Shown piece after piece: positions 28,440 to 58,848 of a stretch of 62,513 bases of DNA; position 1 is the stretch's first letter, and each line of letters opens with the position of its first letter. The position numbers and the translations under genes were made by a program. Under the pieces are notes generated by a model. That model was not told the DNA's origin, ran no database searches, and saw nothing but the letters and a program-made list of their open reading frames with translations. The DNA comes from a virus. Taxonomy: Duplodnaviria; Caudoviricetes. The DNA lies in the IMG/VR virus record IMGVR_UViG_3300037424_002587, positions 1 to 62,513 of that record; one strand, given 5' to 3'.

Positions 28440-30879
28440 CTTCTATTGAAAATTCTTCTGAAGGTTGATTAGGAATAATTGAGCCATCATTTGGTTCTTC
28501 ACCTTCATAATCTGTTAGCATCATATAGTTAAATCTTTCACTAACTCGAAAACTAAACCTTTGTTGCGATCTAGCTTTTTGCTGATCAATAGTAATAATG
28601 TGCCCTGTTTCTCGCGCTATTTCTTCACTATATTGCCAAGCCCAGACATTATCCGAGTGTTCTAAAATGGCACGACTGTATTTTACTTTACTATCATCAT
28701 TTAACTGACATAGTAATACTCCTACCATATCCATTTTTTTAATAAAACGTTTAGTAAAACGAGCAACTTCACCCAATGCCTTCCATGGCTCATTACCCCT
28801 GACATCCAACAGAGACACATAATCTACAATTAATACAGCATAGCCAAAACGAGTCAATCTAAAACATACATCTTGAATGCTCAAATCATCCACGGGGCAA
28901 TAAATGCTATATTTACAATTCTTTTGCTTCCCTAACTTAACAAATTCTTCCCAAGTCTTTGTTGCATGTTGTTGCTGTTTTTCCGAGAGTCTGCCTAATA
29001 GAATATCCAAGGAATCTAATCTACAAATGTTTGAAAGAATCCTAGAAACTATCTCTTCATGATCCATTTCCAAAGAAACAAGTGCCACATTATAACCTTG
29101 ACGATACATATTGATAAGTAATTGAACTGCACAGCAACTATTGTGAGTAACCACAAAACTATCTGTAATGTATAAATGATCAGGGTGGTTAATCATTATA
29201 CATTGCGTTGGTTGTATTCCTAAATATTTAATACTTTTAATTTCACATTTAAGGGAGATTTCCTTTGCTCTCTTGACTCTGTCTGCTTTTCTTGAAAGTT
29301 TGAATAAAGTTTCAGGTTCATTGTATCTGATACAACATTTGAAACGCGTTTTACATCTTTTTTTAATACCTTCTTTTGTTTTATAATAAGATTTTTTAAT
29401 TCGAATTTTACAAAGGCCCCCCAATGATCTCACCAAATACTGAATATCAAGGGCTAATTTATGACTAGAAGTACTTATAGAGAAACTACCTCCCCAATCT
29501 TCGCCTCTATAATTGGCTTCGCCGTCTGTATCACTCAAACCCCTTAGAAGTTCTAAACGTTGTTCAATTGATCCCTTCTTATAAATTTCTGGAATAAATT
29601 TTTCCCAAGCATATTTATGAGCAAGTTTTAAATCAAAAATAACTTGATTATAATAATTTAAAAATTTTCCTTTTCGCAATTCATTACATATCTTAAATGT
29701 TTCATTTTCTTCTCGAATTAAAGAATAATCACATTTATTATTTTTTACTTTTTTTAAACAATAACCATTTATCATTTTACTTGATAATCTATCTAGAATA
29801 TCTTTATCTATATTGGAAAAACCTATTCTATTCCCAAAATGACCGTCACCTAATAATAAACCCAGTACATAGGGATCCAAAGGAAGAATTTTATTCGTAT
29901 TTTCGATAGCCTTTGGTAAGGGTATATACAATCTTCGCCATTTACTTTTCTTTAATTTTAATATTTCTTTTAAAGAAAGAACTCTCCAAGGATCTCGTTT
30001 ATAATAAACACGTTTTCCGTTTACAGTAGTATTACTTTGTCCCCAAGAAGGACTATATACTTTCCATAGATGATTTTCATCACAATCTGTAGTTCTACCA
30101 TCTTCAAATGTTATTCGATAAGTTGGACGCAATCCTTGAGGAAAAACATGTGTAACACGAGATGCTTCTCCACTCGAAGCAGAAACTATATCTCCCACTT
30201 TTATGTTTCCCATCTTTATCCAACCATCCGGAGTTTTAATAAGAGAATATAAAGGTTGAGCCTTTCCTCCAGATGAACTGGAAGCTATTGATATTAATGC
30301 ACCTTTACGTAAGCCTCCATTTATATTATCAAAACTTTTAAACCCTGTCGGAATATAAGATGTTACATTTCCCCCTATTATATTTTTAACTAAAAGATCA
30401 GCATTACAATCAGTTCCTATATGAATTAATTCCTCATCCATGTCACCAGAAACTCTTGCATTTAAAACTGAACTTTCATATAAGTTGATTACCTGATTTA
30501 TATCAACCTTTTTCTCTTGTAATAATTTTAATGTTTGTTCGCTACAATCGTAACAAATTCTTATTTTCCTATATTCATTAAGTTGACTTAATAAGGGCTT
30601 AGTATCTGTTGTATTTTTGATACGTTGAAAATTTTTATAATGCCGTACAAGATCTTTTGCTTCCTCTGAAAGAGCGGGATCTTCTAATAAAGTTGGAATG
30701 TTTGGAATTTCTTTTCCGTTTTTAACCAAACAAAAAACTCTGGTATACACTTCTCTCGCAGCAGGTACTCCAAAATGAGTATCCTTTAAAGATCCTATTA
30801 AAAATGTTTTAACATCGGTTAAACCACTACAAAGATTTACGAGAGCAGTTATTTCCGTCGAAGGGGAACACGTTTTCAT
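28420..30879 (-). CDS. dnaB: Replicative DNA helicase DnaB with intein
   Basis: IPTGF..FD...GGL, Walker A SSSGGK|S, VSLEM, IVDY, LCQLN, SRAILEHSD. Confidence 0.9.
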   Translation of the reverse strand: MKTCSPSTEITALVNLCSGLTDVKTFLIGSLKDTHFGVPAAREVYTRVFCLVKNGKEIPNIPTLLEDPALSEEAKDLVRHYKNFQRIKNTTDTKPLLSQLNEYRKIRICYDCSEQTLKLLQEKKVDINQVINLYESSVLNARVSGDMDEELIHIGTDCNADLLVKNIIGGNVTSYIPTGFKSFDNINGGLRKGALISIASSSSGGKAQPLYSLIKTPDGWIKMGNIKVGDIVSASSGEASRVTHVFPQGLRPTYRITFEDGRTTDCDENHLWKVYSPSWGQSNTTVNGKRVYYKRDPWRVLSLKEILKLKKSKWRRLYIPLPKAIENTNKILPLDPYVLGLLLGDGHFGNRIGFSNIDKDILDRLSSKMINGYCLKKVKNNKCDYSLIREENETFKICNELRKGKFLNYYNQVIFDLKLAHKYAWEKFIPEIYKKGSIEQRLELLRGLSDTDGEANYRGEDWGGSFSISTSSHKLALDIQYLVRSLGGLCKIRIKKSYYKTKEGIKKRCKTRFKCCIRYNEPETLFKLSRKADRVKRAKEISLKCEIKSIKYLGIQPTQCIMINHPDHLYITDSFVVTHNSCCAVQLLINMYRQGYNVALVSLEMDHEEIVSRILSNICRLDSLDILLGRLSEKQQQHATKTWEEFVKLGKQKNCKYSIYCPVDDLSIQDVCFRLTRFGYAVLIVDYVSLLDVRGNEPWKALGEVARFTKRFIKKMDMVGVLLCQLNDDSKVKYSRAILEHSDNVWAWQYSEEIARETGHIITIDQQKARSQQRFSFRVSERFNYMMLTDYEGEEPNDGSIIPNQPSEEFSIEDDSVEY
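29140..30261 (-). mobile_element. Class 3 (Ala1, WCT) intein with LAGLIDADG endonuclease in DnaB Walker A, 374 aa
   Basis: Begins AQPLYSLIKTPDGW; block B HLW, block F TQCI, ends YITDSFVVTHN|S; LGLLLGDG and LLRGLSDTDG. Confidence 0.9.
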
Positions 30880-36082: not shown

Positions 36083-37000
36083 TTAAAACTCTTCAAGTTC
36101 TTCTTTTTCGATGTCTTCTTTTTCGATGTCTTCTTTTTCGATATCTTTAAGCTCTTGTTCTTTAACTAAAGTAGAATTCTCACCTCTTTTCTTTAACAAA
36201 GATTTTGGCAGATTAAGAACAAATTCATATTTAATATCCAATGGTAAATAGGTAGTTAAATAATTGAAATCTAACTTATTAGTTTTAGTTTCTTGTAGAG
36301 CAATTTTAGAAGGGGTATGATAAATATTAATATCCATAAAAGCTGTTCTTAATGCTTTTCCCTTATAACTCGAAACATAAGCTATAAGCTTTTCGACTGC
36401 AGCTGATGGGATAGAATAAATCCTACATAAAGACCCCAACTTCTTTTTACCCAAAATTCCCACCACAAATTGAAGTAGTCCTTCAGAAGCTTCACCCCTT
36501 TCCTTATTACCTAAATGTTCAATAGCTTCTTGTATCATAGAACTTAATTCGGTTTCTGTATTAAGATTTCGTTGAATAACTTTAGTTTTTAATGAAATCT
36601 CTTCCAAAGGAACATCAGTAGTAATCTTAATTTCTTCTACACCCAAACAACACTCATCTAAGGCGGCATTTAGATCTGCAGGTACTATAGATACAAATTG
36701 AAAGCTATTACCTCTTTTTCTAACATCTTTAACATTATTTGTTATTTTAAATAAACTAGAAATAGTATCCATTATAATAATTTTGCTTGTTTGTAAATTA
36801 AAACCCTCTTCGACAACTGCTAATAAATTTTCTACACTTGCAAACATTATTACTTTAGTGCGAATATCAGGACATTCCAAAAATTCAGCTAACTTTTTTA
36901 AATTTTCTTGAAATACATTAGTAATTATAAGGGGTTTGTATTTGTCTCTATCGATTAAAAGAGCAAGAACTGCAGGTGAGTACTGCGTAAAGCCTATCAT
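36083..37000 (-). CDS. Hypothetical protein
   Basis: 305-aa ORF; RBS and start lie within the mini-element end. Confidence 0.7.
   Translation of the reverse strand: MIGFTQYSPAVLALLIDRDKYKPLIITNVFQENLKKLAEFLECPDIRTKVIMFASVENLLAVVEEGFNLQTSKIIIMDTISSLFKITNNVKDVRKRGNSFQFVSIVPADLNAALDECCLGVEEIKITTDVPLEEISLKTKVIQRNLNTETELSSMIQEAIEHLGNKERGEASEGLLQFVVGILGKKKLGSLCRIYSIPSAAVEKLIAYVSSYKGKALRTAFMDINIYHTPSKIALQETKTNKLDFNYLTTYLPLDIKYEFVLNLPKSLLKKRGENSTLVKEQELKDIEKEDIEKEDIEKEELEEF
36101..36145. repeat. 15-bp tandem repeat x3 encoding DIEKE
   Basis: ttctttttcgatgtc x2 plus ttctttttcgatatc. Confidence 0.8.
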
Positions 37001-39703: not shown

Positions 39704-40069
39704 CTAACCCCTTTCATATTCGAACCCTTCATCTCCTCTATATATCAACAAATGCTTGTCTTCTTTAGCTTTAAATCTTTTTTTAAGATAAGTTAAACCT
39801 TCTAGCAAATTTCTTTCTCCACAAGTGAAAAGATCTATTGCAGCATAACCACGTTCGGGCCAGGTATGAACGGATAAATGTGATTCGGCAATTAATATAT
39901 ACCCACTTACCCCTTGAGGTGCAAATTTATGAAATTTCTGTTGAAGTACATTAACATTTAAAAATTTTGCGGTATCTAATAAAATTGCAGAGACTTTATC
40001 CAAATCGTCCAAAATCTTAAATGGACATCCTATTAACTCCACTATCAAGTGTTTTCCCAATGCATTCAA
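39704..40069 (-). CDS. speD: S-adenosylmethionine decarboxylase proenzyme
   Basis: GKHLIVEL, HKFAPQGVSG..LIAESHLSVHTWPE.GYAAIDLFTCG. Confidence 0.95.
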   Translation of the reverse strand: MNALGKHLIVELIGCPFKILDDLDKVSAILLDTAKFLNVNVLQQKFHKFAPQGVSGYILIAESHLSVHTWPERGYAAIDLFTCGERNLLEGLTYLKKRFKAKEDKHLLIYRGDEGFEYERG

Positions 40070-40724
40070 TGGCCTGCCCTTTCTTTGTAGCTACTAGAAA
40101 ATTAATAATTATCGCGTAAATCTCTTTACACACCTCGGTTAAGTTCCTGTGCGCATCGATCCTCCTTATAATTGAAGACTCTAAACTATTATAGATAGTT
40201 TTTACTTTTTCTAAAAATTCTTTTTTTTCAAAACTAGTTGTTTTAGCCCTATTTTTAATAATACGGGTTAAAGCTGTATCCACATCTATATCAAATAAAA
40301 ATGTTAGATCGGGATTTAATATAACATTTTTGTTTAATTCAAAAATATACTCAGGTGATAAATCAACTCCTTGATAAGCAATGTTAGAATAAAAATATCT
40401 ATCTAATAAAACTATTTTATCTTCACGTAAAGCAGGTAACAAATTTTTATCTCTATTTTCTATTCGATCTTTAACAAATAAATCAGCAACAATTTGAGGA
40501 TCAGGCAGCTTCCCGCCAGAAGAAGCTGCCTCCCTAATCTGTGTCCCAAATATACCATTTGATGGTTCTGCAAAATTTACTACATCAAAACATGCTATAG
40601 ATAACTTTTTAAAAAGATTTTGAATGCAGATGCTTTTCCCGCTACCGTCGATACCTTCAAATACAATTAGATGGCCTGAATATGTTTTCAGATTGTTTAC
40701 CCAAACATTCATTATTAACCCCAT
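40017..40724 (-). CDS. tmk: Thymidylate kinase
   Basis: IVFEGIDGSGKS, EPS, LLDRYFYSNIAYQG, PDLTF. Confidence 0.9.
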   Translation of the reverse strand: MGLIMNVWVNNLKTYSGHLIVFEGIDGSGKSICIQNLFKKLSIACFDVVNFAEPSNGIFGTQIREAASSGGKLPDPQIVADLFVKDRIENRDKNLLPALREDKIVLLDRYFYSNIAYQGVDLSPEYIFELNKNVILNPDLTFLFDIDVDTALTRIIKNRAKTTSFEKKEFLEKVKTIYNSLESSIIRRIDAHRNLTEVCKEIYAIIINFLVATKKGQAIECIGKTLDSGVNRMSI

Positions 40725-41458: not shown

Positions 41459-42292
41459 TTAGATTAAATAGGTGCCACACCTTTTGCAATAAGTGGCATC
41501 CGAGTTAGATGCTAACCCACACATTGTACAAATAAGTTTATTCCCTGTAGTGATGGGTTTTTCAACTTCTTCCATTGTTCCTATAAAGCCCCTTAATTGT
41601 AAAGTGATAGTATGAGAAACTTCTTCCAACTCTCCAATACAGGCTTCTATAAATTTCTGATTTGAAATACTTCCTTTTGTAGTAATACCTTCATCAACAT
41701 TTGGAACTACTCCATTACTACTTTGAAAATTAGAGGCCTGAATATCTCTTACTTGCGTAGAATTTATATTATAAGCACTCCCTATGCCTGAAGACGACGA
41801 AAGAGAAACAGTTTCATCAGTCCATGTATAACGTGATGGAGCAACACGTTTAGGCTTAGGATAAGGTGGATAATAAGGTGGATAATAAGACGGATAATAA
41901 TACGTATTACATATAGTGTAATATTCTATACAGTTTCTCTGTTTTTCAAAAGTAAACTCTACACGAATTAATCCATCATCGATCTTATCCCCTCGATACT
42001 CTGCTATTTCAGAAGTCTTCCTAATAAACTTAAATCTATTCCCGGAACTTAAATTCTCAGCAAACCTCTCAATTTCGCGTTCATGTCCTCCATCAAGAAT
42101 ATAAGTACTATTATTTCCAAATATATTTTGACCATCGATGAAAATTTTCACTGAAGCTTTTCTAGTTTCTAGATTCTTTAAAAGAATCGAAAACTCTGAG
42201 TTAAATGGAAGATATACTCCATTTTCTCGTTCTCGTAAAATTTGACGATTACATTTCAATGCAACTACAAAATTATTCTTATGCATAAACAA
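41459..42292 (-). CDS. Phage hypothetical protein with C-terminal zinc ribbon
   Basis: NNFVVALK..ILRE..VYLPF.SEFSILLKN; YYPP repeats; CTMCG...YCKRCGT. Confidence 0.75.
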   Translation of the reverse strand: MFMHKNNFVVALKCNRQILRERENGVYLPFNSEFSILLKNLETRKASVKIFIDGQNIFGNNSTYILDGGHEREIERFAENLSSGNRFKFIRKTSEIAEYRGDKIDDGLIRVEFTFEKQRNCIEYYTICNTYYYPSYYPPYYPPYPKPKRVAPSRYTWTDETVSLSSSSGIGSAYNINSTQVRDIQASNFQSSNGVVPNVDEGITTKGSISNQKFIEACIGELEEVSHTITLQLRGFIGTMEEVEKPITTGNKLICTMCGLASNSDATYCKRCGTYLI

Positions 42293-45386: not shown

Positions 45387-45641
45387 TTATTTGATTAATT
45401 TATTGAAATTATTAAAACATAACAATCCCATCCCATATCCAATTAATATTAATGCACCAATAGGAGAAAAAATAGTCATAAGAACCACACGAGGATCATA
45501 AATGTCGTTGACCAAATTCATCATTACTTTAAAAACTATTGTTGATAACATTGTCCATGTAATTATAATGAATATCATTGTTAATAAAGTCATCATTTTC
45601 TTTCTGCAGACACACTTAACATTGCAAAGAATATAGACCAC
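45387..45641 (-). CDS. Small membrane protein
   Basis: Two hydrophobic segments; resembles 46129..46338 (F.SPI..LILIGY..G). Confidence 0.55.
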   Translation of the reverse strand: MVYILCNVKCVCRKKMMTLLTMIFIIITWTMLSTIVFKVMMNLVNDIYDPRVVLMTIFSPIGALILIGYGMGLLCFNNFNKLIK

Positions 45642-45734
45642 GATTGCATTAAGTACCTACATAATATTTCTGCATTTGATATCAACACTTCTAACTTCTA
45701 ATTTCAACACTTTCTTACAATCAGGGCGCTTTAT

Positions 45735-45786
45735 AATCTTAGGTTGAGAAAACCCATAGTTGTCGAAGACACTATGGGTGATTCAC
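45735..45786 (+). mobile_element. IS200/IS605-type mini element (52 bp)
   Basis: TTTAT|aatcttaggttgagaaaacccatagttgtcgaagacactatgggtgattcac; supplies the TGA stop of 45783..46043. Confidence 0.8.
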
Positions 45787-46043
45787 ATTCTCTTATTCCA
45801 TAATTCTATTGCAATAAGTGCATCATCTTCGTAGCTGCCTTTGTGAATGGTTCTTGTTCTTGTTCCACATTTTTGACATACAATGATTATGCCATCTTGT
45901 AGAGATATACCTATACTATCCTCTACTTCTTCTATAATTTCTTCTATAATTTCTACTTTAGACAATCCGCCACACATGGGGCAAGATAGCAATTCTCCGT
46001 CATACTTGATATCACACTTATTGCCCCAAAAGTAAACTATCAT
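45783..46043 (-). CDS. Lar-family restriction alleviation-like zinc-finger protein
   Basis: LLSCPMCGG...IVCQKCGTRT...AIELWNKR. Confidence 0.75.
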   Translation of the reverse strand: MIVYFWGNKCDIKYDGELLSCPMCGGLSKVEIIEEIIEEVEDSIGISLQDGIIIVCQKCGTRTRTIHKGSYEDDALIAIELWNKRM

Positions 46044-46128
46044 TTGTTTGCCTCCTTAAGGTTTAACACATCTGGAGGGATTACTGTGGAGGTAGGGGAG
46101 CTCACCTCCTGAAATCCAAAGAATTTGT

Positions 46129-46338
46129 TTATTTTTTAAAAAATTTAACAACTAAAGTACCCAGATAGTACCCAATTAAAATGAATATAGAAATAGGAGC
46201 AAGAAAGGAAAGAACAAATCTTAATTCACTATCTTGATAATTACCTAAAATATGATATATTGTGGCACCCAGAAAGCCCCATACAATTAATATTAACATT
46301 ATTGCAAAGACAAAAATCATTTTGATAATCCTTTCCAA
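46129..46338 (-). CDS. Small membrane protein
   Basis: Two TM-like segments; paralog-like to 45387..45641. Confidence 0.55.
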   Translation of the reverse strand: MERIIKMIFVFAIMLILIVWGFLGATIYHILGNYQDSELRFVLSFLAPISIFILIGYYLGTLVVKFFKK

Positions 46339-46342
46339 AAAA

Positions 46343-48361
46343 TCAACTATTGATAATATTAATTATTCGGCACGTCATGGCCAGTAGCAATTCGCCCGCA
46401 TCCATCGTATAGCTTTTAATATGAGAGTGCGTACTCACCATATCTGTTAAAATGTTTGCCATTATATTACTAGAGATTTTTATATTTAATTTTTGCATTT
46501 CTTCGATGAGTCTCGAATAAGCGGGGAATGAACCTACTAAATTCTTTTTTACAGAAGCGTACAGCATATTTGTATGAAAATCAATTAAACTCTTTAAAAA
46601 ATATTCAACATTCTGAATATTCTTAAGAATAGTCAACGCAGTAGCATACTTACCCATATAAACACTTAATAAGTATTTACTTACTAATACACTTGGGGGT
46701 AAATCGACTACCTCTTTAATAATTTCAGGGAGAATAGATAAATCTATTTTACCCTTACCTTTTACATAATAAATTACTTTTTCTAAAGCTTTTAATCCGT
46801 CTCGAGGTTGACCTCGAACTAATTTAGATATTTCTATTAGGCTTTTTTTGTCTTCGGCTATAATGGATTTCTCAGCAACAGCTACTTTATAAAGCAATTT
46901 GGCTAAGTCCTTGTATTCAAGAGGGTTTGTTTGGAATTTAAGACATCTACCCAAGATAGTATCTTTAAATTTTTCAGGTTCAGTGGTGCAAAGTATCCAT
47001 ACAACATGTTCGGGAGGTTCTTCCAAAGGTTTAAGAAAACACTCCCGAGCTGCTGGAGTGGACATGTGAAATTCGTCTAATATATAGACCCTAAAATTAG
47101 ATTCAGGTAGATATAAAGACTGATTAATTAATTCCCTTGCATTATCTACACCTGTAGCATTTGCCATATTTAATTCGTGGATATCAGGATGGTCTTCAAT
47201 TTTATCTAATTTACAAGTAGAACATTCTCCACATAATAATTTATCACCAGTACAATTGATATATCTTGCAATAATGCGAGCAATCGAAGTCTTGCCCGAT
47301 CCGGCACTCCCATATAACATGATAGTGTGATTAATTTTTCCGCTTTCAAACATTCCCCTAAGGGTATTAACTATTTCATTTTGTCCAACCAAATCCTCAA
47401 GACACTTTGGTCTATACTTTACATCCAAAGATTCAGTAGTTGTTAAAAAAGGCACTTTTAATTTCTCCTTTTCTTTGATTTTGATACTTTCATATTCTTT
47501 TACAATAGTCTCTCGGTTGATCCACATAGTGCCTGTATTTGCACTTGCATATTTCGACCAGTCAATTTTTTCAAAAATTTGGCGAACTCCCGAAACATGG
47601 CACTTAATTCTTTCAGTCGTTTGTATAGCAACCGGGTCGTCAACTTCTCGGACCAACTGCTTGCGTGCTCCACAAACAACAAACAGAAAATCAGCATGAT
47701 ACCTTTGTGCTTTTGGTAAAAAAACAAAATCTGGATGAGTTGTTAATGGAGCCGTCAGAATACGTTTATTGGTGGTCGAAGACCACTTAGTAGTGCCTAT
47801 TTTTCGAGTTGTCCATATTTGAAATGTGCATTTTACATCATAATCTAAATTGTTAAAAACAAAGGAAAAAGGTTTTAATCGCTTATTAAAAATAAGAGCA
47901 AAACGTGTATCTAAACGTCTATGAATGCTCCACTTTTCCCAGACAACAGGAACTATAAAAGCTATAGTATCAGAATATTTGGCTGCATGATTAAAAAACT
48001 GCACAGCATACTTCGACTGCACACCAAACGGAGGATTTCCAATTGTTATTATTCGCTTAGTGGTCTTCGACCACTCTGTAGGTAAACCATATTGTAAAAA
48101 ATCTCCTTGAATTACACCGAAACATTTAGGCTCTATATCCAACCCCAGTCTTTTATTAGCTGGTAATAATTCAAAAAAGCTACCAGTTCCCGCACTGGGC
48201 TCAAGAAAAATATCATAATAGTCCTCGTAATCTGATGGATAAATTTGCTTTATGTAGGCTATGCACTCTCTTGCAACTTCAGTTTTTGTATAATATTGAT
48301 TTAGTTCCTTACAATTCACCGAACAATTCCTTTTCAGTGATAGCATATTTGAACCAATCAA
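46343..48361 (-). CDS. dnaX: In-frame fusion: amino-DNA methyltransferase (N) plus DNA polymerase III gamma/tau clamp loader (C, from GTG 47455)
   Basis: N part has QYYT, LEPSAGTGSF, IGNPPFG. C part has KYRP..LEDLVGQ, GSAGSGKTS, CxxC zinc cluster, ILDEFHM, FLKPLEEPP, TILGRC. The likely real start is GTG at 48319. Confidence 0.9.
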   Translation of the reverse strand: MIGSNMLSLKRNCSVNCKELNQYYTKTEVARECIAYIKQIYPSDYEDYYDIFLEPSAGTGSFFELLPANKRLGLDIEPKCFGVIQGDFLQYGLPTEWSKTTKRIITIGNPPFGVQSKYAVQFFNHAAKYSDTIAFIVPVVWEKWSIHRRLDTRFALIFNKRLKPFSFVFNNLDYDVKCTFQIWTTRKIGTTKWSSTTNKRILTAPLTTHPDFVFLPKAQRYHADFLFVVCGARKQLVREVDDPVAIQTTERIKCHVSGVRQIFEKIDWSKYASANTGTMWINRETIVKEYESIKIKEKEKLKVPFLTTTESLDVKYRPKCLEDLVGQNEIVNTLRGMFESGKINHTIMLYGSAGSGKTSIARIIARYINCTGDKLLCGECSTCKLDKIEDHPDIHELNMANATGVDNARELINQSLYLPESNFRVYILDEFHMSTPAARECFLKPLEEPPEHVVWILCTTEPEKFKDTILGRCLKFQTNPLEYKDLAKLLYKVAVAEKSIIAEDKKSLIEISKLVRGQPRDGLKALEKVIYYVKGKGKIDLSILPEIIKEVVDLPPSVLVSKYLLSVYMGKYATALTILKNIQNVEYFLKSLIDFHTNMLYASVKKNLVGSFPAYSRLIEEMQKLNIKISSNIMANILTDMVSTHSHIKSYTMDAGELLLAMTCRIINIINS

Positions 48362-48920
48362 ATTTTTTACGATTCAATGAAATACTCCACTCTTCTTTGG
48401 ATCCATTTTGAATCTTACTCATCTTATTTTTGGAACCTCCCATTATATGGGCACCTGAAAATGAAATGTCTTTTGCATAGTGTTCCTTTAGCTTTTTTGT
48501 AGGAATGTAAAGCAAAGTATATGAACCCGTATCTTCATAAATAGTTAAAAACAGATAACCCTCCAAGGATTGATAAAGTCTAACTTGGTTTCCCCTAAAA
48601 ATTCTGTTATCTCTGCTAGTTAGAACTGCGATCTTTAACTCATAATATTTATTCGCTTTGCAGAGATCGCCTCGATCTTCCTTTTGTTTGGATTTTCGAT
48701 CAAAATAACCACGAGCTTGAAAATATAACTCACAAAGAGGACCTCTCTGTTGTCCAGTAAGAGGAAGCAATTTTTTAACAAAAACTTCTAAGGGTAGCTG
48801 TTTCAAAACCTCTACGTTATTGAGCTGATTGTAGGAATTACGTTGTAATAGACACAAATGACAAGCATCTTCTTCCTTAGATATTAGATCATCAAGGTTT
48901 TCAAATCGTATAGCCATCAA
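48309..48920 (-). CDS. Putative PD-(D/E)xK restriction endonuclease
   Basis: CE...RGD...YYELK...NQVR pattern; overlaps the MTase start and has its own promoter. Confidence 0.6.
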   Translation of the reverse strand: MMAIRFENLDDLISKEEDACHLCLLQRNSYNQLNNVEVLKQLPLEVFVKKLLPLTGQQRGPLCELYFQARGYFDRKSKQKEDRGDLCKANKYYELKIAVLTSRDNRIFRGNQVRLYQSLEGYLFLTIYEDTGSYTLLYIPTKKLKEHYAKDISFSGAHIMGGSKNKMSKIQNGSKEEWSISLNRKKFDWFKYAITEKELFGEL

Positions 48921-48991
48921 ATTCTCCTACAAGTGAGTTTTCATCGCGTGCCTATGTTTCAGTTCAACGATCAGTAATCAATTATGTATTA

Positions 48992-49020
48992 ATTATACAG
49001 GTTATTCTGAGAAAAGTCAA
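48992..49020 (-). promoter_or_regulatory. Sigma70-type promoter driving REase-MTase/DnaX
   Basis: TTGACT-17 nt-TATAAT followed by TAATACATAA. Confidence 0.8.
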
Positions 49021-49070
49021 CCCTTTTTGTTCAACTCCTCTTAACATTTACGTAGTTTACATCTTTTTAT

Positions 49071-49133
49071 GTATGAATGTAAAATCACTATCCTAAAAGG
49101 ATTTATTGACCATAGAGATAGTGGGTGATTCAC
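49071..49133 (+). mobile_element. Degenerate IS200/IS605-type mini element
   Basis: TTTAT|gtatgaatg..cactatc...gatagtgggtgattcac; supplies the TGA stop of 49130..49435. Confidence 0.6.
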
Positions 49134-49435
49134 TTTCCATATAATTCAGTATTTATAATCTCCAATTGAACATTTGAGATATTTTTAAAAACTATCTTTT
49201 TGAGAATCTTTTCTGGTGAAACATCGACAAAATCTAAAAAATTAGCAAAAGCTTGACTTGCAAATCCCGGACTAATTTTATGCACATTCGTAAAATCCAA
49301 AATAATAAAGGGCTCTTCATTCAGCCAAGCTTCTTCATTAAGAAGCTTGGCTAAATATTTATTTACAAAGGTAATCGCTTGACTTCGGTCGGCCAAACGA
49401 CTACTAAATTCTTTACCTACATCAACAACTTGCAT
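49130..49435 (-). CDS. STAS-like (DUF4325) protein
   Basis: LADRSQA...IILDFTNV..ISPGFASQAF. Confidence 0.7.
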   Translation of the reverse strand: MQVVDVGKEFSSRLADRSQAITFVNKYLAKLLNEEAWLNEEPFIILDFTNVHKISPGFASQAFANFLDFVDVSPEKILKKIVFKNISNVQLEIINTELYGK

Positions 49436-49445
49436 TTAGGCTCCA

Positions 49446-49634
49446 TTAATAGAATATAAGTTTCAATATATCTTCTGCAGCTTTATTGCGAGTTTCAAAA
49501 TTTGTAATACCATAATGATCATGCAATAACATTGCTATATTTGAAATATAGCCGTCTTTAAATCCGCCTGGTTGTGAATCTGCTTCAAAAGCATCTTTCA
49601 TTACTTTACGCGCTTTAACAATTTCTTTTGACAA
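49446..49634 (-). CDS. Small hypothetical protein
   Basis: ORF track; GGAGGG RBS. Confidence 0.55.
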   Translation of the reverse strand: MSKEIVKARKVMKDAFEADSQPGGFKDGYISNIAMLLHDHYGITNFETRNKAAEDILKLIFY

Positions 49635-49685
49635 TTTAATTCCCTCCTACGTCTACTATATTACTTCATTAAAAAACGATAATCT

Positions 49686-50174
49686 TCACGATACGTAATT
49701 TGCTGTTTTATAGGACTTTACAATTATATCATTTTCATTACACGAAAATGCAACAGCCGCGCCAGTCGTAGTTTCTCTGACTCGTGCATAAACTACTTTA
49801 ATTAAATCTTTATACTTTTGCTCTAAGAAATCATTTGTAAATTTGAACAAAGCCCGAGCCATATTTTCGGCTGTGCAATTTTTCTTCATTACTAAAACAC
49901 GCTCAAACTTACTATAAAAGAATTCAATAACTTCCTTATCTTCTTCCTCCGCAAAAACAGTAGCGTGATCAAAATCATCAACAAAATCTTTAATGGGTTT
50001 CAATTCCTTAAAATCTAATACCATGCCAGTGTTGTCATCTACTAAACCCTTTAAAGCAATTTCCCAAATATAACTATGGCCATGCACGCTAAATCTACAG
50101 CGGGTGCTTACTGCATTTTTAACAATATGGGCAGTTTCTGACTTCATGATTTTTTCAATCAAAGCTTCAGGCAT
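49686..50174 (-). CDS. queD: 6-carboxy-5,6,7,8-tetrahydropterin synthase (QueD-like)
   Basis: AH..., C...HGHSY, GMVLDFKELK, FDH, TAENMA, VRET. Confidence 0.85.
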   Translation of the reverse strand: MPEALIEKIMKSETAHIVKNAVSTRCRFSVHGHSYIWEIALKGLVDDNTGMVLDFKELKPIKDFVDDFDHATVFAEEEDKEVIEFFYSKFERVLVMKKNCTAENMARALFKFTNDFLEQKYKDLIKVVYARVRETTTGAAVAFSCNENDIIVKSYKTANYVS

Positions 50175-50252: not shown

Positions 50253-50708
50253 TTAACAAATTTGTAATATTTTAACTTCTGCCTCCTTCAAAAGACCTTC
50301 AGTAAATTCATCAGGATATGGTTCTTTATAAAAGATTTTACAAATTCCTGCACTTATTATCATTTTAGCACAAGTAGCACAAGGCATATGCGTTACGTAA
50401 ATGGAGCAGCTATTGAGGTCTCTTCGTGCATATATTATAGCATTTTGTTCTGCATGCATAGCACGACAAATTTCAATTCGCTGTGCTGATGGAATATCCA
50501 ATTCCGCTCGCAAACAACCACGTTCATCACAATGTTTTAATTTACTTGGAATACCGTTATAACCCGTTGATATAATTCGATTCTCTGTGTCTACTATAAC
50601 TGCACCTATTTTTCTCCTTATACAGGTTGATCTACAGGAGGTCAACTCAGCAATACTCATAAAATATTCGACCCATGGAAGTCTCTTTTTATTATATTCG
50701 GTAGACAT
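50253..50708 (-). CDS. dCMP deaminase
   Basis: RSTC.RRKIGAVIV, STGYNG, HAEQNAI, PCATCAKMII. Confidence 0.9.
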   Translation of the reverse strand: MSTEYNKKRLPWVEYFMSIAELTSCRSTCIRRKIGAVIVDTENRIISTGYNGIPSKLKHCDERGCLRAELDIPSAQRIEICRAMHAEQNAIIYARRDLNSCSIYVTHMPCATCAKMIISAGICKIFYKEPYPDEFTEGLLKEAEVKILQIC

Positions 50709-53454
50709 TATCAGCTCTTATCTCCCTTGTTGCATTAGTGATATCAACCACTCGCTTTGAATTACTTACTATGGCTTCGTAATTATAGCAACTATGATTT
50801 ACTGCAATAATAATTGTTTCAAAACCACATAAATTATCATAACGAGGCGTTATTGAATAACTATGCAATGTTTTAAAAATATCGCCATCTCTTTTTAATA
50901 TAGGGATGTAAGGATCATTATAATCAATGATTAAGCCTTTTTCTTCTAAATAATCCATTAAGCGTAATACTCCTGACTCGCGTATATCATCAATATCAGG
51001 TTTATACGTAACACCTAATATAAGTATATTAGCCTCGGGTAGGAGAATATGCCGACCTAATATCTCACAAATTTTGGTAGCAATGTATTTTGGTTGACCC
51101 CAATTAATTGCTTCAGCTTCCGAAATTAAACGAGATTTACATTCAAACTTTTTAACACGATAAGTTAAATAGGTGGGATCAGTTGAAATGCAATTATGTA
51201 CTATAAGACCATTTGAGGTAATTATAGTATGATTATTCTCTATTTCTGCAGAATAGACAAAAGTATTTGAAGGCTCAATCATGATATCTTTAACTTTTAA
51301 GGCATAATAATTTCCATAATCTTTAACATAATCATATATAATTCTTTTTTGAAGATTATTAAAGTATGTTTCAAATAAAGATTTACGTATTTCACCAAAC
51401 AATTTTTTTGCGTTTTCTAAATCTTCTGGACCTGAGAGCGAAAGTAATCCATCTCTTTTTTGAATTTTAGGAATTACACCAAAATCTTTCAATAATAAAC
51501 CAATTTGTTGAAATAAATTTGGACTTGAAGTAAAATAATTTATAGAAGCACTTGTTTTGTTATAAATCCTCCCCTTAGCATCTTTTTGTTTCCCTGAAAA
51601 AATATAACTTCCTCCATCTCCTCTAAATAATCCACTTAATAATTCAAATTTTAAATCAGAGGAAGCATTATAAAAAAGAGCTGGAATTTGCTTTTCATAA
51701 CAATTTTTTCCACATTTTAAAATATTTTCAAATAAAAATCCAAGAAAATATGAAGGAATTCTAATGCAAGTTGCTTTAAAATTTTTATCTTTAAAAACCA
51801 ATGGTTTTAATTCAAACTTAGTTTTTAATATAGACACAACATCCTCTATATATTCAAATTCTGTTGAATTAAACGTAAAGGCTGTTTTTAAACTATCTCC
51901 ATTATTCAGGACACAACCTTCACTCAAATAATAACCAATTAATCGAGCAAAATCCTTATCTACAAAGATAATACAGGGAAACTTGCTAAAGCTGGGACCG
52001 CTTCCTCTGCACAAATAAAGATTAGATCTGGGGATATTTAAATCTTTTTCTAATTCTAAATATTTTTCTAAAGGTAAATAATCAGAAATAAAATAATTCA
52101 TCGCAATTCGTAAATTACCTATTTTTTTCTTTATGGTATCTTTGTAATCTTTAAAACTGCCTGTTTTAAGTTTAACTCTCACTTTCGGATACACAGAAGG
52201 ATCTAGATATTCAAGAATATCTAGATTCATAGAGTTCCAAAAATTTTGTTTCGGAAGATTTTTATTTAAAATCAACAAATCCCCAGATTTAATATCTTTC
52301 GCATATTTGATCTGAATCCCTTTCTCCTCAATGAGCATAGGATGCAAATCACTTACTCGAAGAGAATACCCATAATGGCAATTTATATCAATCATATTCC
52401 CTATAAATTTTCTTTTTGAAAAACAATTAACTTTTTCGTAAGTGATACTTTTATCAGATATGTTAAAAGATAAACATTTTGTGTTTTCAGGATAAAAGAA
52501 TTCGGTATTATTTACTATTTCTTTACGACAATTTAAAGAATCTACATAAGGACCAAAATCAACAATTTTATGCTCTTTGTTTTCGATTAAGAAGAGTTTT
52601 GATTTTCCATCTAAACAGTGCCCTCCGACGAAGCCTGGAGTAAACTTTTGAAATCCAAAAGGTTTTGTAGAGGCTGCTTCTACAACTTTCCAAATATCAA
52701 TACCCATCTGTTCACACAAATAACGCATTTCATTTATTAAAGCAATATTAACTGCACGATAAGTATTTTCTAAAATTTTTGCAGTTTCTGCAATTTCAAC
52801 AGAATCCACAGGTATCACTTTATCAAATACCTGTTGATAGAGAACTTGCACTCTTTCCAAACATTTTTTTGTTATTCCTGAAACTAATTTAGGAATTTGT
52901 TTGATTGGAATTTTACTACCAGGGTTTTCACGTTCGGGTGAAAATGCTACAAAATAATCTCTTCCCACTACTTTACCTGTTGCCTTTTGAATAACATTAC
53001 ATATTTCTTCTCGTGTAGTACCCGGGTATGAAGTGCTCTCTAAAATAATTAACTGATTCTTACAGAGATATTGTTTCAGTTGATTCACAACATTTCTCAC
53101 GTAGGAAAGATCTGGTTGTCTATATTCATTTAATGGTGTAGGTACCGTTATAATTATAACATCCATGTTTTCCAATATAGAAAAATTAGAAGTAGGATAA
53201 AAGGTACAATTCGCAATTCTATCAGATTGAATTGTTGAAATATATGATTTATTACTGCGAATTGTATCAATTTTATTTTCATCAATGTCAAATCCAACTA
53301 CACGAAATCCAGCTTCACAAAAGGTGAGAGTAAGAGGAAGCCCCACATATCCTAAACCTACAACACCTATCCATACTTCTTTAGTTGTAATTTTTTCAAT
53401 TAAATCTAAATCTTTATCAGAAATTTTCTTTAAAATATTATTACGATTATCCAT
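50692..53454 (-). CDS. UDP-glucose/UDP-GlcNAc/GDP-mannose dehydrogenase family protein with intein
   Basis: VGLGYVGLP, VPTP, LESTSYPGTT, FSPER.NPG, KILENTYR.VNIA..NE, GGH|C, LGVTYKPDIDD.RES. Confidence 0.9.
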   Translation of the reverse strand: MDNRNNILKKISDKDLDLIEKITTKEVWIGVVGLGYVGLPLTLTFCEAGFRVVGFDIDENKIDTIRSNKSYISTIQSDRIANCTFYPTSNFSILENMDVIIITVPTPLNEYRQPDLSYVRNVVNQLKQYLCKNQLIILESTSYPGTTREEICNVIQKATGKVVGRDYFVAFSPERENPGSKIPIKQIPKLVSGITKKCLERVQVLYQQVFDKVIPVDSVEIAETAKILENTYRAVNIALINEMRYLCEQMGIDIWKVVEAASTKPFGFQKFTPGFVGGHCLDGKSKLFLIENKEHKIVDFGPYVDSLNCRKEIVNNTEFFYPENTKCLSFNISDKSITYEKVNCFSKRKFIGNMIDINCHYGYSLRVSDLHPMLIEEKGIQIKYAKDIKSGDLLILNKNLPKQNFWNSMNLDILEYLDPSVYPKVRVKLKTGSFKDYKDTIKKKIGNLRIAMNYFISDYLPLEKYLELEKDLNIPRSNLYLCRGSGPSFSKFPCIIFVDKDFARLIGYYLSEGCVLNNGDSLKTAFTFNSTEFEYIEDVVSILKTKFELKPLVFKDKNFKATCIRIPSYFLGFLFENILKCGKNCYEKQIPALFYNASSDLKFELLSGLFRGDGGSYIFSGKQKDAKGRIYNKTSASINYFTSSPNLFQQIGLLLKDFGVIPKIQKRDGLLSLSGPEDLENAKKLFGEIRKSLFETYFNNLQKRIIYDYVKDYGNYYALKVKDIMIEPSNTFVYSAEIENNHTIITSNGLIVHNCISTDPTYLTYRVKKFECKSRLISEAEAINWGQPKYIATKICEILGRHILLPEANILILGVTYKPDIDDIRESGVLRLMDYLEEKGLIIDYNDPYIPILKRDGDIFKTLHSYSITPRYDNLCGFETIIIAVNHSCYNYEAIVSNSKRVVDITNATREIRADNVYRI
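51193..52617 (-). mobile_element. Class 1 intein with LAGLIDADG endonuclease at the catalytic Cys of the sugar dehydrogenase, 475 aa
   Basis: GGH|CLDG...SDLHP...LIGYYLSEG...LLSGLFRGDG...LIVHN|CIS. Confidence 0.9.
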
Positions 53455-53721: not shown

Positions 53722-56016
53722 TTATCTCCTTACAACTTTAATGTGCCCATTTTCTAAAAGAACTACACACTCTTTAACATTTTCTAAAGAGGGTGTTTCA
53801 AACATGGTTTCTAGCATGATACTTTCCATAATAGATCTTAAACTACGAGCTCCAGTACCCATATCCAGTGCCTTTTGTGCAATATATTCAAGAGCTGACT
53901 TATCAAATTTTAAATCAATGTTATCCATTAATAATAATTCTTGATATTGCTCTACGAGAGAATATTTAGGAATTGTTAAAATTTTAATGAGATCATCTAT
54001 GTCTAACTCATCCAATGTAACAATAATAGGAACTCTACCTACCAACTCAGGTATTAATCCGTATTTGATTAAATCCCTATGTGTAACCTGTTTCAAATAC
54101 TTTTCTACTTTATCTGAAGAAGAAACCTTTTCAGTCAAAAAACCAACATTAGAGTTTCCTTGTCTTTCCGCAATTAATTCGGCCAATCCATTGAAGGCAC
54201 CCCCAAGTATAAATAATATATTACGAGTATCTATGCGAACATATTGCTGTCCTGGATGTTTTCTTTGACCCGTAGGTTGCACATTAATAATAGAACCCTC
54301 TAATAATTTCAATAAAGCCTGCTGAACACCTTCACCTGAAACATCGCGGGTTATTGAAGGATTTGCTCCATTCTTACGTGCTTTTTTATCTATTTCATCA
54401 ATATAAATAATTCCCCGAGTTGCTTTTTCTATATCCGAATTTGCATTAATCAGCAATGTTTGCAACATTGTTTCGATATCTTCGCCAACGTAGCCCGCCT
54501 CTGTCATAGAGGTAGCATCTACAATAGCAAATGGAACATTTAAAAATCGAGCTAATGTTTGACACAGAAGTGTATTATGCGTCACCACAAATCCATCTGT
54601 AATGTATAAATGATCAGGGTGATCGATCATTATACATTGTGTTTCTTGTATTCCAAGGTATTTTATTGTTTTAATTTTACATCTTAATGTTATAGGAATC
54701 GAACGAATAGCTCTTTCACTTTTCCTACCAAGCTTCATTAGTATTTCAGGATTAGAATGTCTAATACAACATTTGAACCACATTCTACATCTTTTTCGAA
54801 TACCTTCTTTTGTTTTATAAAAAGATTTTTTAATCCTAATAGTACAAAGACCGCCTAACGATCTTATTAAATACTGAACATCTAAGGCTAATTGATGGTT
54901 ACTCGTAGAATAAGAAACATCCCCACTTGCATAGCTATCTTCATATTTAGATTTTTGACATTTTCTTTTATTAACTTCTCCATCTATATCCATTAAACCC
55001 CTTAATAATTCTAAACGCTGCTCAACTGAGCTTTCTTTGTAAATTTCTGGTATAAATTTTTCATAGGAGTGTTTGTCATAAAGACCCAAGTCCCTTAATA
55101 TCTCGATATAAACATTCGAGTTTTCTTTTTTTCCATGTGTTATATTGTAATCACAACTCCTTTTAAATTTTAAATAATAACCCTGTTCCAATTTAGAAAT
55201 CAAATTATTAAGAATTTGATCCTCTATATTAGAAAAATTTACAACCCCCGTAAGATTACCATCGCCTAACAAAAGTCCTAATAAATAAGGATTCATAGGA
55301 AGATCTTTTAAACTATTTTGAATAAATTTACATAAAGGCACATACAATGGACTTTTTACTTTTTTCTTATATTCTATTATTTCCTTTAAAGACATAATTC
55401 GTTCAGAATTTTCAACTTTAATGTGCTCTTTATGATTATTTCGATGTTTTCGTGTCCAATTATAACTAAAAACTTTCCATAAATGATTCTCATCACAATC
55501 TGTAGTTCGACCATCTTCAAACGTTATACGATAAGTTGGCCTTAATCCTTGTGGAAATACTCCCCTAACTGATGCAGATTTTCCCTTAGGAGTTGATACC
55601 ACATCACCTACTTTAATATCTCCCATCTTTATCCAACCATCAGGTGTTTTAATCTGTGAGTAAAGAGGTTGTGCTTTTCCACTACCCGTAGGTCCAATCA
55701 ACATAATATTACTTTTTTGAATTTCAGTGGTAATATTACGGATTCTTTTATAATGATTATAAACAGCAACAGCTAAAGATTTTTTAACTTGTTCCTGGCC
55801 TATTACATAGTCATCTAAGAAATTTTTTATTTCAATAGGTTTGAACGAACAACTACCAATTTTCTTTTCAAGAGCTTCATTTTCTAAAAATTTAGTACCA
55901 AATGCAATACATTCATTACAAATAAATGCACCTGAACCTTCCAGTAATTTCCCAACCTCAGAAGTAGTCCGGCCACAAAAAGAACATTTATTTTCTTGAT
56001 AATCTGAAGAAACCAT
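53722..56016 (-). CDS. clpX: ATP-dependent Clp protease ATPase ClpX with intein
   Basis: CSFCG zinc domain, YVIGQ..VK..LAVAVYNHYKR, KSNI.LIGPTGSGK|TLL, TEAGYVGED, SITRDVSGEGVQQALLK, TGARSLR. Confidence 0.95.
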   Translation of the reverse strand: MVSSDYQENKCSFCGRTTSEVGKLLEGSGAFICNECIAFGTKFLENEALEKKIGSCSFKPIEIKNFLDDYVIGQEQVKKSLAVAVYNHYKRIRNITTEIQKSNIMLIGPTGSGKAQPLYSQIKTPDGWIKMGDIKVGDVVSTPKGKSASVRGVFPQGLRPTYRITFEDGRTTDCDENHLWKVFSYNWTRKHRNNHKEHIKVENSERIMSLKEIIEYKKKVKSPLYVPLCKFIQNSLKDLPMNPYLLGLLLGDGNLTGVVNFSNIEDQILNNLISKLEQGYYLKFKRSCDYNITHGKKENSNVYIEILRDLGLYDKHSYEKFIPEIYKESSVEQRLELLRGLMDIDGEVNKRKCQKSKYEDSYASGDVSYSTSNHQLALDVQYLIRSLGGLCTIRIKKSFYKTKEGIRKRCRMWFKCCIRHSNPEILMKLGRKSERAIRSIPITLRCKIKTIKYLGIQETQCIMIDHPDHLYITDGFVVTHNTLLCQTLARFLNVPFAIVDATSMTEAGYVGEDIETMLQTLLINANSDIEKATRGIIYIDEIDKKARKNGANPSITRDVSGEGVQQALLKLLEGSIINVQPTGQRKHPGQQYVRIDTRNILFILGGAFNGLAELIAERQGNSNVGFLTEKVSSSDKVEKYLKQVTHRDLIKYGLIPELVGRVPIIVTLDELDIDDLIKILTIPKYSLVEQYQELLLMDNIDLKFDKSALEYIAQKALDMGTGARSLRSIMESIMLETMFETPSLENVKECVVLLENGHIKVVRR
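54574..55674 (-). mobile_element. Class 3 (Ala1, WCT) intein with LAGLIDADG endonuclease in ClpX Walker A, 367 aa
   Basis: AQPLYSQIKTPDGW...CDENHLW...TQCIMI...YITDGFVVTHN|T; closely similar to the DnaB intein. Confidence 0.9.
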
Positions 56017-57527: not shown

Positions 57528-58848
57528 AATTCCTTTCTTTATGAAAAACTAAACATTTTCAATGGGTTAACCACTAACCCTCTATTGAGTAGTTTTTCTT
57601 CAAAAAACTCATCTTGAAGAAAATCATTCCCAATTACTTTTCTTAAAATTCCTAATGCACCATTAACATCAGCATTTAATAGTTGACCGTAGCTACTACG
57701 AAACAAACCACGTTTAACTCTTTTTCCAAGGTATGTTTCATGGTGTTCCAACGTCTCATTGGCTAAATGATCAACTTTACTCGTGTAGGATTCTTCCGTT
57801 GTTAACACAACAATACCTACTTCTTCAGCTTTGTAAGTTATTTGGCTAATGAGTGTGTTAAATGGGATACTAACAAATTTTTGATTAGTAGCCTTACTTA
57901 GATTAACTCTTTGTTTCCAACCATCGTTTTTTCCAATAACAATCGTTCCAATGTTATGTTGAAGACAATAATTAATAATGAATCTTGATGTATGGTGCAT
58001 GTAGTTTTGAACACGCATGTTCCTTTTGTGAGTAAGTCGAAGTATACGTTTCGAACTTCCCTTTCCACCTACATAACTTTGATACACTGCCTTTATCTTG
58101 TTATAATATTGATTAATGGACTTCAAAATCTTACCTTTAATGAGAATAGGAAGTTGTCCTGACTCATTTAACAAGTGGTCAAAATGGTCTTTGACCATTG
58201 AGACCCCCACACAAGTTGCAAGATTATTAATGCCTAAATCAATACCAAGGTATAGTTCACTTTTTAAGTTTTCATCTATTTCAATCTCCTTTTTATAAAC
58301 AACCTCAACCACATAACATGTATGCTGGGGTATAATTCTAACAAGTTGTAAGTTGTTAGTAATTTTAGTTTTTAATGGCTGAATGCCACTTCTCTTTGGA
58401 AAATGTATGAAACCATTCTTAATCTTACACTGAACATAAGTGAATACCACAATGTTTTTACCATTTTCCTCTTTGTAATGTGGAATTCTTGGTTTGCCAG
58501 TAAATTTCTTAGGGTGTTTAGAATACTCAATACTTGCTCTAACAAAACTTTTCCAATTTTTCTCTAAAAGCAGGAGTATCTGTTGAGCACTATTATGAGG
58601 TAAAGCTCTAAAACTTTCTTCTTTCTTCATTAAATGATACAAATCATTGTAGCTTATATACTTTCCCGTGTTAAAGTAAACATTTCGCATGTAAAAATTA
58701 GCACGGTTGTAGAGATTTTTAGATAAAAAACATAATCTGTCAAAAGTTTTAGACTCTAAAAATATATGACGTTCACATCTTGTTAAAATGGTATTCACCT
58801 CCTTTCACGAAGAAGCCCATATTGCCATAGGCAACGTGAGTGATTCAC
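57519..58848. mobile_element. Non-autonomous IS200/IS605-family (IS1341-like) element, tnpB only
   Basis: tnpB flanked by ends that recur in shorter copies (4556, 36998, 62258); hairpin end gaagcccatattgccataggcaacgtgagtgattcac; no tnpA in the window. Left boundary is 57519-57543. Confidence 0.8.
57539..58798 (-). CDS. tnpB: RNA-guided endonuclease TnpB
   Basis: LCFLSKNLYN, GIDLGINNL (RuvC-I), IVIGKN, EESYTSK, KRGLF, NADVNGALGILRK (RuvC-III). Confidence 0.95.
   Translation of the reverse strand: MNTILTRCERHIFLESKTFDRLCFLSKNLYNRANFYMRNVYFNTGKYISYNDLYHLMKKEESFRALPHNSAQQILLLLEKNWKSFVRASIEYSKHPKKFTGKPRIPHYKEENGKNIVVFTYVQCKIKNGFIHFPKRSGIQPLKTKITNNLQLVRIIPQHTCYVVEVVYKKEIEIDENLKSELYLGIDLGINNLATCVGVSMVKDHFDHLLNESGQLPILIKGKILKSINQYYNKIKAVYQSYVGGKGSSKRILRLTHKRNMRVQNYMHHTSRFIINYCLQHNIGTIVIGKNDGWKQRVNLSKATNQKFVSIPFNTLISQITYKAEEVGIVVLTTEESYTSKVDHLANETLEHHETYLGKRVKRGLFRSSYGQLLNADVNGALGILRKVIGNDFLQDEFFEEKLLNRGLVVNPLKMFSFS

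Follow-up and report, generated by a model that had tools for sequence, protein, structure and literature searches.

A viral contig of 62,513 bases in IMG/VR (record IMGVR_UViG_3300037424_002587; here called the window, in its whole length) carries a single open reading frame (ORF) of 672 codons (46343..48361, minus strand) in which a complete predicted DNA methyltransferase (residues 1-302) is followed by a complete gamma-like DnaX clamp-loader subunit (residues 303-672), with no internal stop in the ORF listing. The window is a fragment, with an estimated completeness of 24%, from an uncultured soil or sediment phage. It codes for tail sheath, tube, and baseplate proteins, a DnaB-like helicase, and SbcCD-like proteins, from which, together with several homing endonucleases and a transposase, we conclude that the source is a large tailed phage. 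The fusion is real and so far a one-off, and we regard it as probably a tolerated accident rather than a proven new mechanism. It stands behind a candidate restriction endonuclease gene, and the restriction-modification module that the nuclease and methyltransferase appear to form belongs to an already known kind of system.

The fused ORF is best described as two whole genes minus one stop codon, as judged from the stand-alone relatives of both halves, which end or begin at the joint. Read on the minus strand, the tail of the methyltransferase (...KEYESIKIKEKEKLK) runs directly into a GTG (47453..47455; V303 of the fused ORF), and a Shine-Dalgarno site, AAGGAG (47465..47470, minus strand), lies within the methyltransferase frame 9 nucleotides ahead of it. 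A first-pass annotation of this DNA had pointed to these elements as a strong internal start for dnaX, and the relatives agree, with their starts aligning here. Eight of the nine closest DnaX relatives begin (MPxL or LPxI; MRL in P0002) no more than one to two columns from V303-P304, and P0011, the most distant of the nine, extends about eight residues further upstream. In four related loci (L083 to L086), all four have a GGAG-type site at a comparable distance ahead of the dnaX start, and two use TTG, such that non-ATG starts are usual in the family. The GTG is therefore the native initiation codon of dnaX, and the methyltransferase part in effect ends in dnaX leader read as protein.

Whether the genes are fused or separate is decided by a 1-nucleotide frame difference at a TAA in the dnaX leader (47458..47460, minus strand), which ends 2 nucleotides before the GTG and is out of the methyltransferase frame. 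A TAA is also found 1 to 2 nucleotides ahead of the dnaX start in L084, L085, and L086. It terminates a sizeable upstream ORF only in L085, where 72 codons stop 1 nucleotide before dnaX; in L084 and L086, stops are near the dnaX start with no sizeable upstream ORF in that frame. L083 has an upstream ORF of 142 codons that stops at a TAG, 10 nucleotides before dnaX.

A frame that hangs on one nucleotide could be opened by a homopolymer error of that size or by a chimeric assembly, with the real phage having a stop between the genes; one base more or less in the A-rich tail would be enough to bring the leader TAA into line with the methyltransferase codons. Seven public runs contain part of the window, and we compared four of them (X1, X2, X3, and X5) as contigs rather than raw reads, with X1 possibly being the source sample. 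The separate Logan assembly of X1 provides a 3925-nucleotide contig with no differences over 45735-49500. X3, which is from another study and another year, provides a 151-nucleotide contig with a depth of 11.9 that covers 47431-47581 without differences or gaps, spanning the conserved methyltransferase C terminus, the A-rich tail, the Shine-Dalgarno site, the GTG, and eight DnaX codons; the contigs of both runs are thus identical to the window across 47440-47480. Three flanking 151-nucleotide contigs of X3 (47289-47439, 47094-47244, and 47633-47783) also have no differences. Other parts of the region are unchanged in X2 and X5, and the joint is outside their coverage. The identical sequence is present in runs of at least three studies (X1, X2, and X3). 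The fused open frame is real, and an artefact is very unlikely.

The DnaX part (370 amino acids; 46343..47455, minus strand) matches the Pfam family DNA_pol3_delta2 at residues 326-480 (103 bits; cut-off, 27) and the PHROG clamp-loader family phrog_5846 at residues 308-655 (E value, 2.1e-66), and scores 239.7 bits with NCBIfam TIGR02397 (dnaX_nterm), slightly below the cut-off of 250. It also matches E. coli gamma/tau (E value, 2.8e-39), with the best stretch covering residues 6-234 of the E. coli protein and residue 10 of the DnaX part aligned to gamma residue 6. In an alignment of 10 sequences, Walker A (G351, G354, G356, and K357), Walker B (D429 and E430), and R472-C473 are invariant, the arginine-finger SRC-type motif reading GRC in the window; in the four-cysteine zinc module, C370, C380, and C383 are invariant, and C377 is nearly so. 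The nine closest relatives are all stand-alone proteins (371 to 393 amino acids, 38 to 68% identity), with P0002 to P0004 the nearest at 66 to 68%. The tau-specific C-terminal domains IV-V are absent from the 370-residue part. The first-pass description of a complete methyltransferase followed without a stop by a complete gamma/tau subunit is thereby upheld, with the refinement that DnaX is gamma-like, not tau; assembly with delta and delta' and clamp loading are its predicted role.

Residues 1-302 (47456..48361, minus strand; candidate starts TTG 48361, ATG 48346, and GTG 48319) are predicted to be a gamma-class N6-adenine, Type II-like DNA methyltransferase. Motif I, EPSAGTG (E54-G60), precedes motif IV, NPPF (N109-F112), and in a family alignment of 48 sequences E54, P55, S56, G58, and G60 are invariant, as is G108-N109-P110-P111-F112-G113. 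PADLOC MTase_II models match the N-terminal part over the full profile length (E values, 3.2e-39 and 6.8e-36), and PHROG matches are to phrog_5172 (unknown function; residues 17-296; E value, 1.3e-47) and to phrog_799, "DNA methyltransferase" (residues 18-142; E value, 1.7e-12). This part has no Pfam and no NCBIfam match, and a PDB profile search gave weak matches, with METTL5 and M.TaqI at E values of about 3e-3. An AlphaFold model built on the family alignment (predicted local distance difference test [pLDDT], 89.1) has a class I Rossmann fold, with 196 Foldseek matches in the PDB at E values of ≤0.001. Heading these are Erm38 and KsgA, both adenine-N6 methyltransferases, the putative RNA methyltransferase PH1948, and METTL5; M.TaqI, CamA, M.BseCI, and MmeI are also among the matches.

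Searched alone, residues 1-302 retrieve 139 proteins, the ten best of which are stand-alone (269 to 296 amino acids, 49 to 59% identity) and end at or just past a conserved ...NRETIVKEY... block, at query residues ∼293 to 302. DNA as the substrate is indicated by linkage to the nuclease (25 of 80 loci; see below), by fusion to a Dam enzyme in the relative P0241, and by GenBank phage annotations; pointing to RNA instead are the top structural matches, which are rRNA adenine methyltransferases, and the label "predicted RNA methylase" given to some homologs by the Joint Genome Institute. P0241 is a metagenomic protein of 626 amino acids in which a D12-class Dam methyltransferase (PF02086, residues 16-264) is fused to a domain of the window's methyltransferase family (36% identity). 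We note that ten more proteins, of 532 to 602 amino acids, carry this family, and the three that were scanned have no Pfam match above cut-off; the ten may be tandem duplications.

Ahead of the methyltransferase is a PD-(D/E)xK nuclease gene (48309..48917, minus strand; 202 amino acids from the ATG at 48917), a candidate Type II restriction endonuclease. It has an AGGAG upstream of its ATG and overlaps the methyltransferase start by 11 to 53 nucleotides, according to the start chosen; both the overlap and the nuclease motif had been noted in the first-pass annotation, and both hold. The ORF has no Pfam, PHROG, or NCBIfam match, and 24 relatives were found among 1.84 billion representatives. 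In an alignment of 23 sequences, conservation is complete at Q111, R113, and Y121 and nearly so at G83, D84, E93, and K95, the last three of which form the conserved catalytic pattern D-x8-E-x-K. The structural model (pLDDT, 90.9) places the catalytic residues on adjacent strands (85-87 and 90-99). Foldseek matches are weak (best E value, 5.5e-3). With VIA-align against 48,161 PDB representatives, for which best Z scores of 7 to 8 are common, the best match is the restriction endonuclease NhoI (Z, 9.1; root-mean-square deviation, 3.9; 143 residues aligned), and the next are the Eco15I N-domain (7.4), 3ndh (6.5), MepB (6.3), I-Ssp6803I (6.2), NaeI (6.2), and PvuII (6.1). Seven of the eight matches after NhoI are PD-(D/E)xK-type nucleases (Z, 5.3 to 7.4); the eighth is MepB.

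Among 80 viral loci fetched by the methyltransferase family, a hidden Markov model (HMM) of the nuclease finds a member of its family directly beside the methyltransferase homolog in 25, nine of which are contigs of giant-virus metagenome-assembled genomes. The pairs are convergent in 24 of the 25, and only L239 has the nuclease first and overlapping, as in the window. Because the two families adjoin in 25 of the 80 loci, we regard them as a conserved two-gene restriction-modification module, for which cleavage and its blocking by methylation are predicted; this linkage is the strongest evidence that the putative nuclease is a restriction enzyme.

The module resembles Type II systems with PvuII- or NhoI-like nucleases in its D-x8-E-x-K motif and in a fold nearest to those of NhoI, Eco15I-N, and PvuII, and it resembles M.TaqI-like gamma-class methyltransferases in the order of motifs I and IV, the Rossmann fold, and the PADLOC MTase_II match. 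It differs from known Type II systems in that neither protein has a Pfam or NCBIfam match and the methyltransferase has no stop codon of its own. NhoI acts on methylated DNA according to its PDB title, a specificity that is not transferable to the window's nuclease. Passages of a paper on chloroviruses report that these viruses encode nuclease-methyltransferase pairs and that the PBCV-1 nucleases are believed to break down host DNA at an early stage of infection (PMC7019647). As in those pairs, the virus and not the host codes for the adjacent nuclease and methyltransferase; the window, however, derives from a tailed phage, and the same passages report no chlorovirus methyltransferase fused to a replication protein.

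A sigma-70-like promoter (TTGACT-17 nucleotides-TATAAT; 48992..49020, minus strand) lies ahead of the nuclease gene. The near-consensus promoter claimed earlier for the head of the unit stands as a pattern match only, with 11 of 12 consensus positions, and it is the best promoter-like site within 45600-49700. Overall, the region has no excess of promoter-like sites (15, versus 18.1 ± 4.1 in shuffles).

The methyltransferase-DnaX architecture is new, but it is a singleton. When the whole ORF was searched against 5.8 billion protein clusters, 468 matches had E values of ≤0.001; in the best 120 of these, query coverage exceeds 55% for the window's own protein alone. Likewise, DnaX is present in only the window's own protein among 12 long proteins with this methyltransferase domain. 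With tblastn, 636 of 50,697 GenBank phage records have a match, and none covers 80% or more of the query. The best ESM Atlas scores (0.79, a lead only) are all to plain viral clamp loaders of 345 to 472 amino acids, with no fusion, and no second example emerged from an HMM and tblastn cross-search of 160 DnaX loci and 80 methyltransferase loci; none of the 160 DnaX loci has an ORF of the window's nuclease or methyltransferase family. Titles and abstracts of the papers listed in literature searches on methyltransferases with clamp loaders or DnaX contain no natural fusion of the two, and the passages located in a review of jumbo phages (PMC7824862) do not mention one. The statement in the first-pass annotation that no such fusion had been described is consistent with these protein, phage-genome, and literature searches.

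The cassette of nuclease and methyltransferase genes appears to be an addition to the phage backbone. The metagenome contig L083, with a DnaX 53% identical to that of the window, shares with it, and in the same order, a QueD-like gene, dnaX, and three downstream genes. Between its QueD-like gene and dnaX are four unrelated small ORFs, with no nuclease or methyltransferase of the cassette families.

With moderate confidence, we interpret the fusion as a tolerated accident, in which cassette insertion directly 5' of dnaX was accompanied by loss of a stop and from which both the chimera and free DnaX are made. A mobile restriction-modification cassette, nuclease first and methyltransferase second, would have landed directly 5' of dnaX, and the methyltransferase stop would have been lost, such that the frame continues through the dnaX ribosome-binding site and GTG into dnaX. 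Transcription from the promoter-like site ahead of the nuclease would yield one mRNA. Ribosomes starting at the methyltransferase would make a 672-residue chimera (∼77 kDa by residue count), presumably the sole form of the methyltransferase, and those starting at AAGGAG/GTG would make an ordinary DnaX of 370 residues; it is a reasonable inference that both are made. Continued production of free DnaX and the integrity of both domains would explain why the phage tolerates the chimera. In support, catalytic motifs are intact in all three proteins, and selfish insertions are abundant in the genome, with several homing endonucleases, intein-like insertions, and a transposase in the window.

Several observations weigh against this interpretation. 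The X3 contig has 24 to 25 letters on the DnaX side of the GTG, below a 31-letter rule for bridging, although it does bridge the A-rich tail, the spot where a stop would be expected. Composition is a weak test of foreign origin: the cassette has a third-position G+C content (GC3) of 0.28 (46 other genes, 0.214 ± 0.028) and the poorest codon fit, but the GC3 of the DnaX part is also high (0.26). We considered composition as an indicator of foreign origin and found it suggestive but not discriminating, since the DnaX part is atypical too. From a single example, selection on the fused state cannot be read in either direction. The lineage that carries the fusion is successful, being present with identical sequence in runs from three or more studies, and the fusion thus does no obvious harm.

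Methyltransferase genes also recur near clamp-loader genes in other phages, which could hint at a functional link rather than chance. In the T4-like IMG/VR loci L166 (2357-5283) and L167, a 301-residue homolog of the window's methyltransferase family lies between genes 44 (phrog_168) and 62 (phrog_225), preceded by a 234-residue ORF with no family match, with gene 45 upstream and regA downstream. These are 2 of 80 loci, probably one phage sampled twice, and are within chance. An upstream survey covered 67 ORFs of at least 150 amino acids within 2.6 kb upstream of the clamp-loader gene at 40 loci. Forty-nine were scanned; the 18 left out are from near-duplicate loci, antisense overlaps, and L083 and L086, and of the three L083/L086 ORFs among them two were scanned separately and the QueD-like homolog was not. 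L086, with a DnaX 41 to 42% identical, has another methyltransferase (3629-4363, plus strand; phrog_67; E value, 6.5e-54) two genes upstream of dnaX, and L002 and L004 have methyltransferase genes of other families upstream of DNA polymerase and the clamp loader.

Such placements are compatible with an adaptive role for the fusion, in which the chimera co-assembles with free DnaX in the clamp loader and positions the methyltransferase at primer-template junctions; new phage DNA would then be methylated as soon as it is made, with the nuclease meanwhile degrading the DNA of the host or of competitors. With both domains intact and the native dnaX start kept, mixed complexes are conceivable; the exact sequence recurs across studies; the window's own methyltransferase family is inside the T4-type clamp-loader operon of L166/L167, and other families are upstream of clamp-loader genes in L086, L002, and L004. 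RFC1 has a large N-terminal DNA-binding extension ahead of its AAA+ module. But the first-pass proposal that the methyltransferase is tethered to the fork through the clamp loader finds no comparative support, the fusion being a singleton: none of the collections searched holds a second fused example, and the closest relatives of both halves are all separate proteins, for which reason we see no sign of selection for the fused state. No evolved linker is seen at the joint, where translation of the methyltransferase tail simply continues through the dnaX leader. The last methyltransferase helix and the conserved KYRP motif in the AAA+ module are only about 12 residues apart, such that steric interference with assembly is possible. 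In the window, which covers about 24% of the genome, neither a clamp gene (DnaN-like PF00712; no matches) nor further clamp-loader subunits were found, PF13177 matching dnaX only. We consider an adaptive tether unlikely and prefer a young accident, because there is no evolved linker and no second example.

We know of no covalent fusion that couples DNA modification to the replisome in bacteria or phages. Replication-coupled methylation does have precedents: published work describes a PCNA-binding region in Dnmt1 (PMC4575159) and a preferential localization of Bacillus subtilis DnmA near the replisome, through substrate availability (PMC9973331). The idea of methylating nascent DNA at or near the fork is common to these and to the window, but as described there, it is a binding motif or substrate availability that brings Dnmt1 and DnmA to the fork, not covalent fusion to a clamp loader. 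It is more doubtful still that the chimera is a working clamp-loader subunit that brings an N6-adenine methyltransferase to every primer-template junction, as a covalent prokaryotic counterpart of Dnmt1-PCNA.

The two activities could also be separate proteins after all, if ribosomes leave the zero frame near the joint or if a protease cuts the chimera, releasing free methyltransferase and free DnaX. Both other frames close near the joint, with the TAA 2 nucleotides before the GTG and a TGA seven codons past the Lys codon, and the Shine-Dalgarno-like AAGGAG and A-runs precede it; such elements and A-runs stimulate frameshifts in E. coli dnaX and prfB. Off-frame stops, however, are expected by chance in a genome of 32% GC, and the joint has no canonical A AAA AAG-type slippery heptamer. 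The folding of the joint RNA (121 nucleotides; -16.1 kcal/mol; z, -0.64) is unremarkable, being equaled or bettered by 47 of 200 shuffles. Programmed frameshifting of the dnaX/prfB type combines a slippery sequence with a stimulatory downstream structure, a combination that the joint lacks; we considered such frameshifting and found no canonical signal for it. Production as separate proteins is improbable.

The tau and gamma isoforms of E. coli dnaX differ at the C terminus, through a -1 frameshift at A AAA AAG. Like that gene, the window's locus would yield two DnaX isoforms, one long and one short, with a common AAA+ and collar core. It is unlike E. coli dnaX in that the extra part is N-terminal and a foreign enzyme, the short form would arise by internal initiation, and there is no slippery site, stimulatory structure, or tau domains IV-V.

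Other features of the window are also of interest. A Lar-like restriction alleviation protein (86 amino acids; 45783-46043, minus strand; Pfam PF14354; E value, 6e-9) is encoded two genes downstream of dnaX, and an anti-restriction gene neighboring a restriction-modification cassette is notable in its own right. Close to it is a short element (45728-45787) with a perfect 8-bp inverted repeat (45753-45778) that occurs once in the window. Its 30 to 60 bases are common to many contigs in X1, X2, X3, and X5, with flanks diverging on both sides, and depth reaches 59 there versus 9 elsewhere; it resembles a dispersed repeat or a regulatory hairpin that is shared. Directly upstream of the promoter-like site of the cassette is an ORF with a DUF4325 STAS-like domain (49130-49435, minus strand).

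Three genes (50692-53454, 53722-56016, and 28420-30879, all on the minus strand) seem to be split by intein-like insertions. A UDP-glucose dehydrogenase is 920 amino acids long, and its translation contains ...GGHC... and ...VHNC... junction-like motifs; a protein of 764 amino acids aligns with its 387-residue L083 homolog only at residues 8-125 and 479-743; and the DnaB-like helicase (819 amino acids) has foreign PHROG matches in its central part. Among DnaX relatives, P0005, P0014, P0015, and P0018 are annotated with Pfam PF14890 or PF07591, which we take to be intein/Hint-type domains. The transposase-like protein is encoded at 57539-58798 (minus strand; phrog_506; E value, 2e-41). Two conserved ORFs (41459-42292 and 36083-37000) have no PDB sequence match and no Pfam match.

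Family matches identify five further minus-strand genes: a QueD-like 6-pyruvoyl-tetrahydropterin synthase (49686-50174), a dCMP deaminase (50253-50708), a thymidylate kinase (40017-40724), an S-adenosylmethionine (SAM) decarboxylase (39704-40069), and a B12-binding radical SAM protein (25806-27326). Together these may constitute a DNA base hypermodification pathway, which, if true, would also bear on self-protection against the nuclease.

The nuclease family and the Pfam-less methyltransferase family constitute an uncharacterized restriction-modification module that is widespread in large viruses, and its specificity could have practical use. If the fusion is a tolerated accident, as we favor, it illustrates that selfish restriction-modification cassettes can come to lie immediately beside essential replication genes and that a retained internal start can buffer a gene fusion. 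Should the chimera instead be functional both as methyltransferase and as clamp-loader subunit, it would amount to a natural experiment in physically coupling DNA modification to the replisome and would show how a virus can carry a restriction enzyme safely. Were it to work within the clamp loader, a lytic phage could run an aggressive restriction enzyme with its own fast-replicating DNA never unmethylated, and the operon placement in L166/L167 would reflect the same coupling without fusion.

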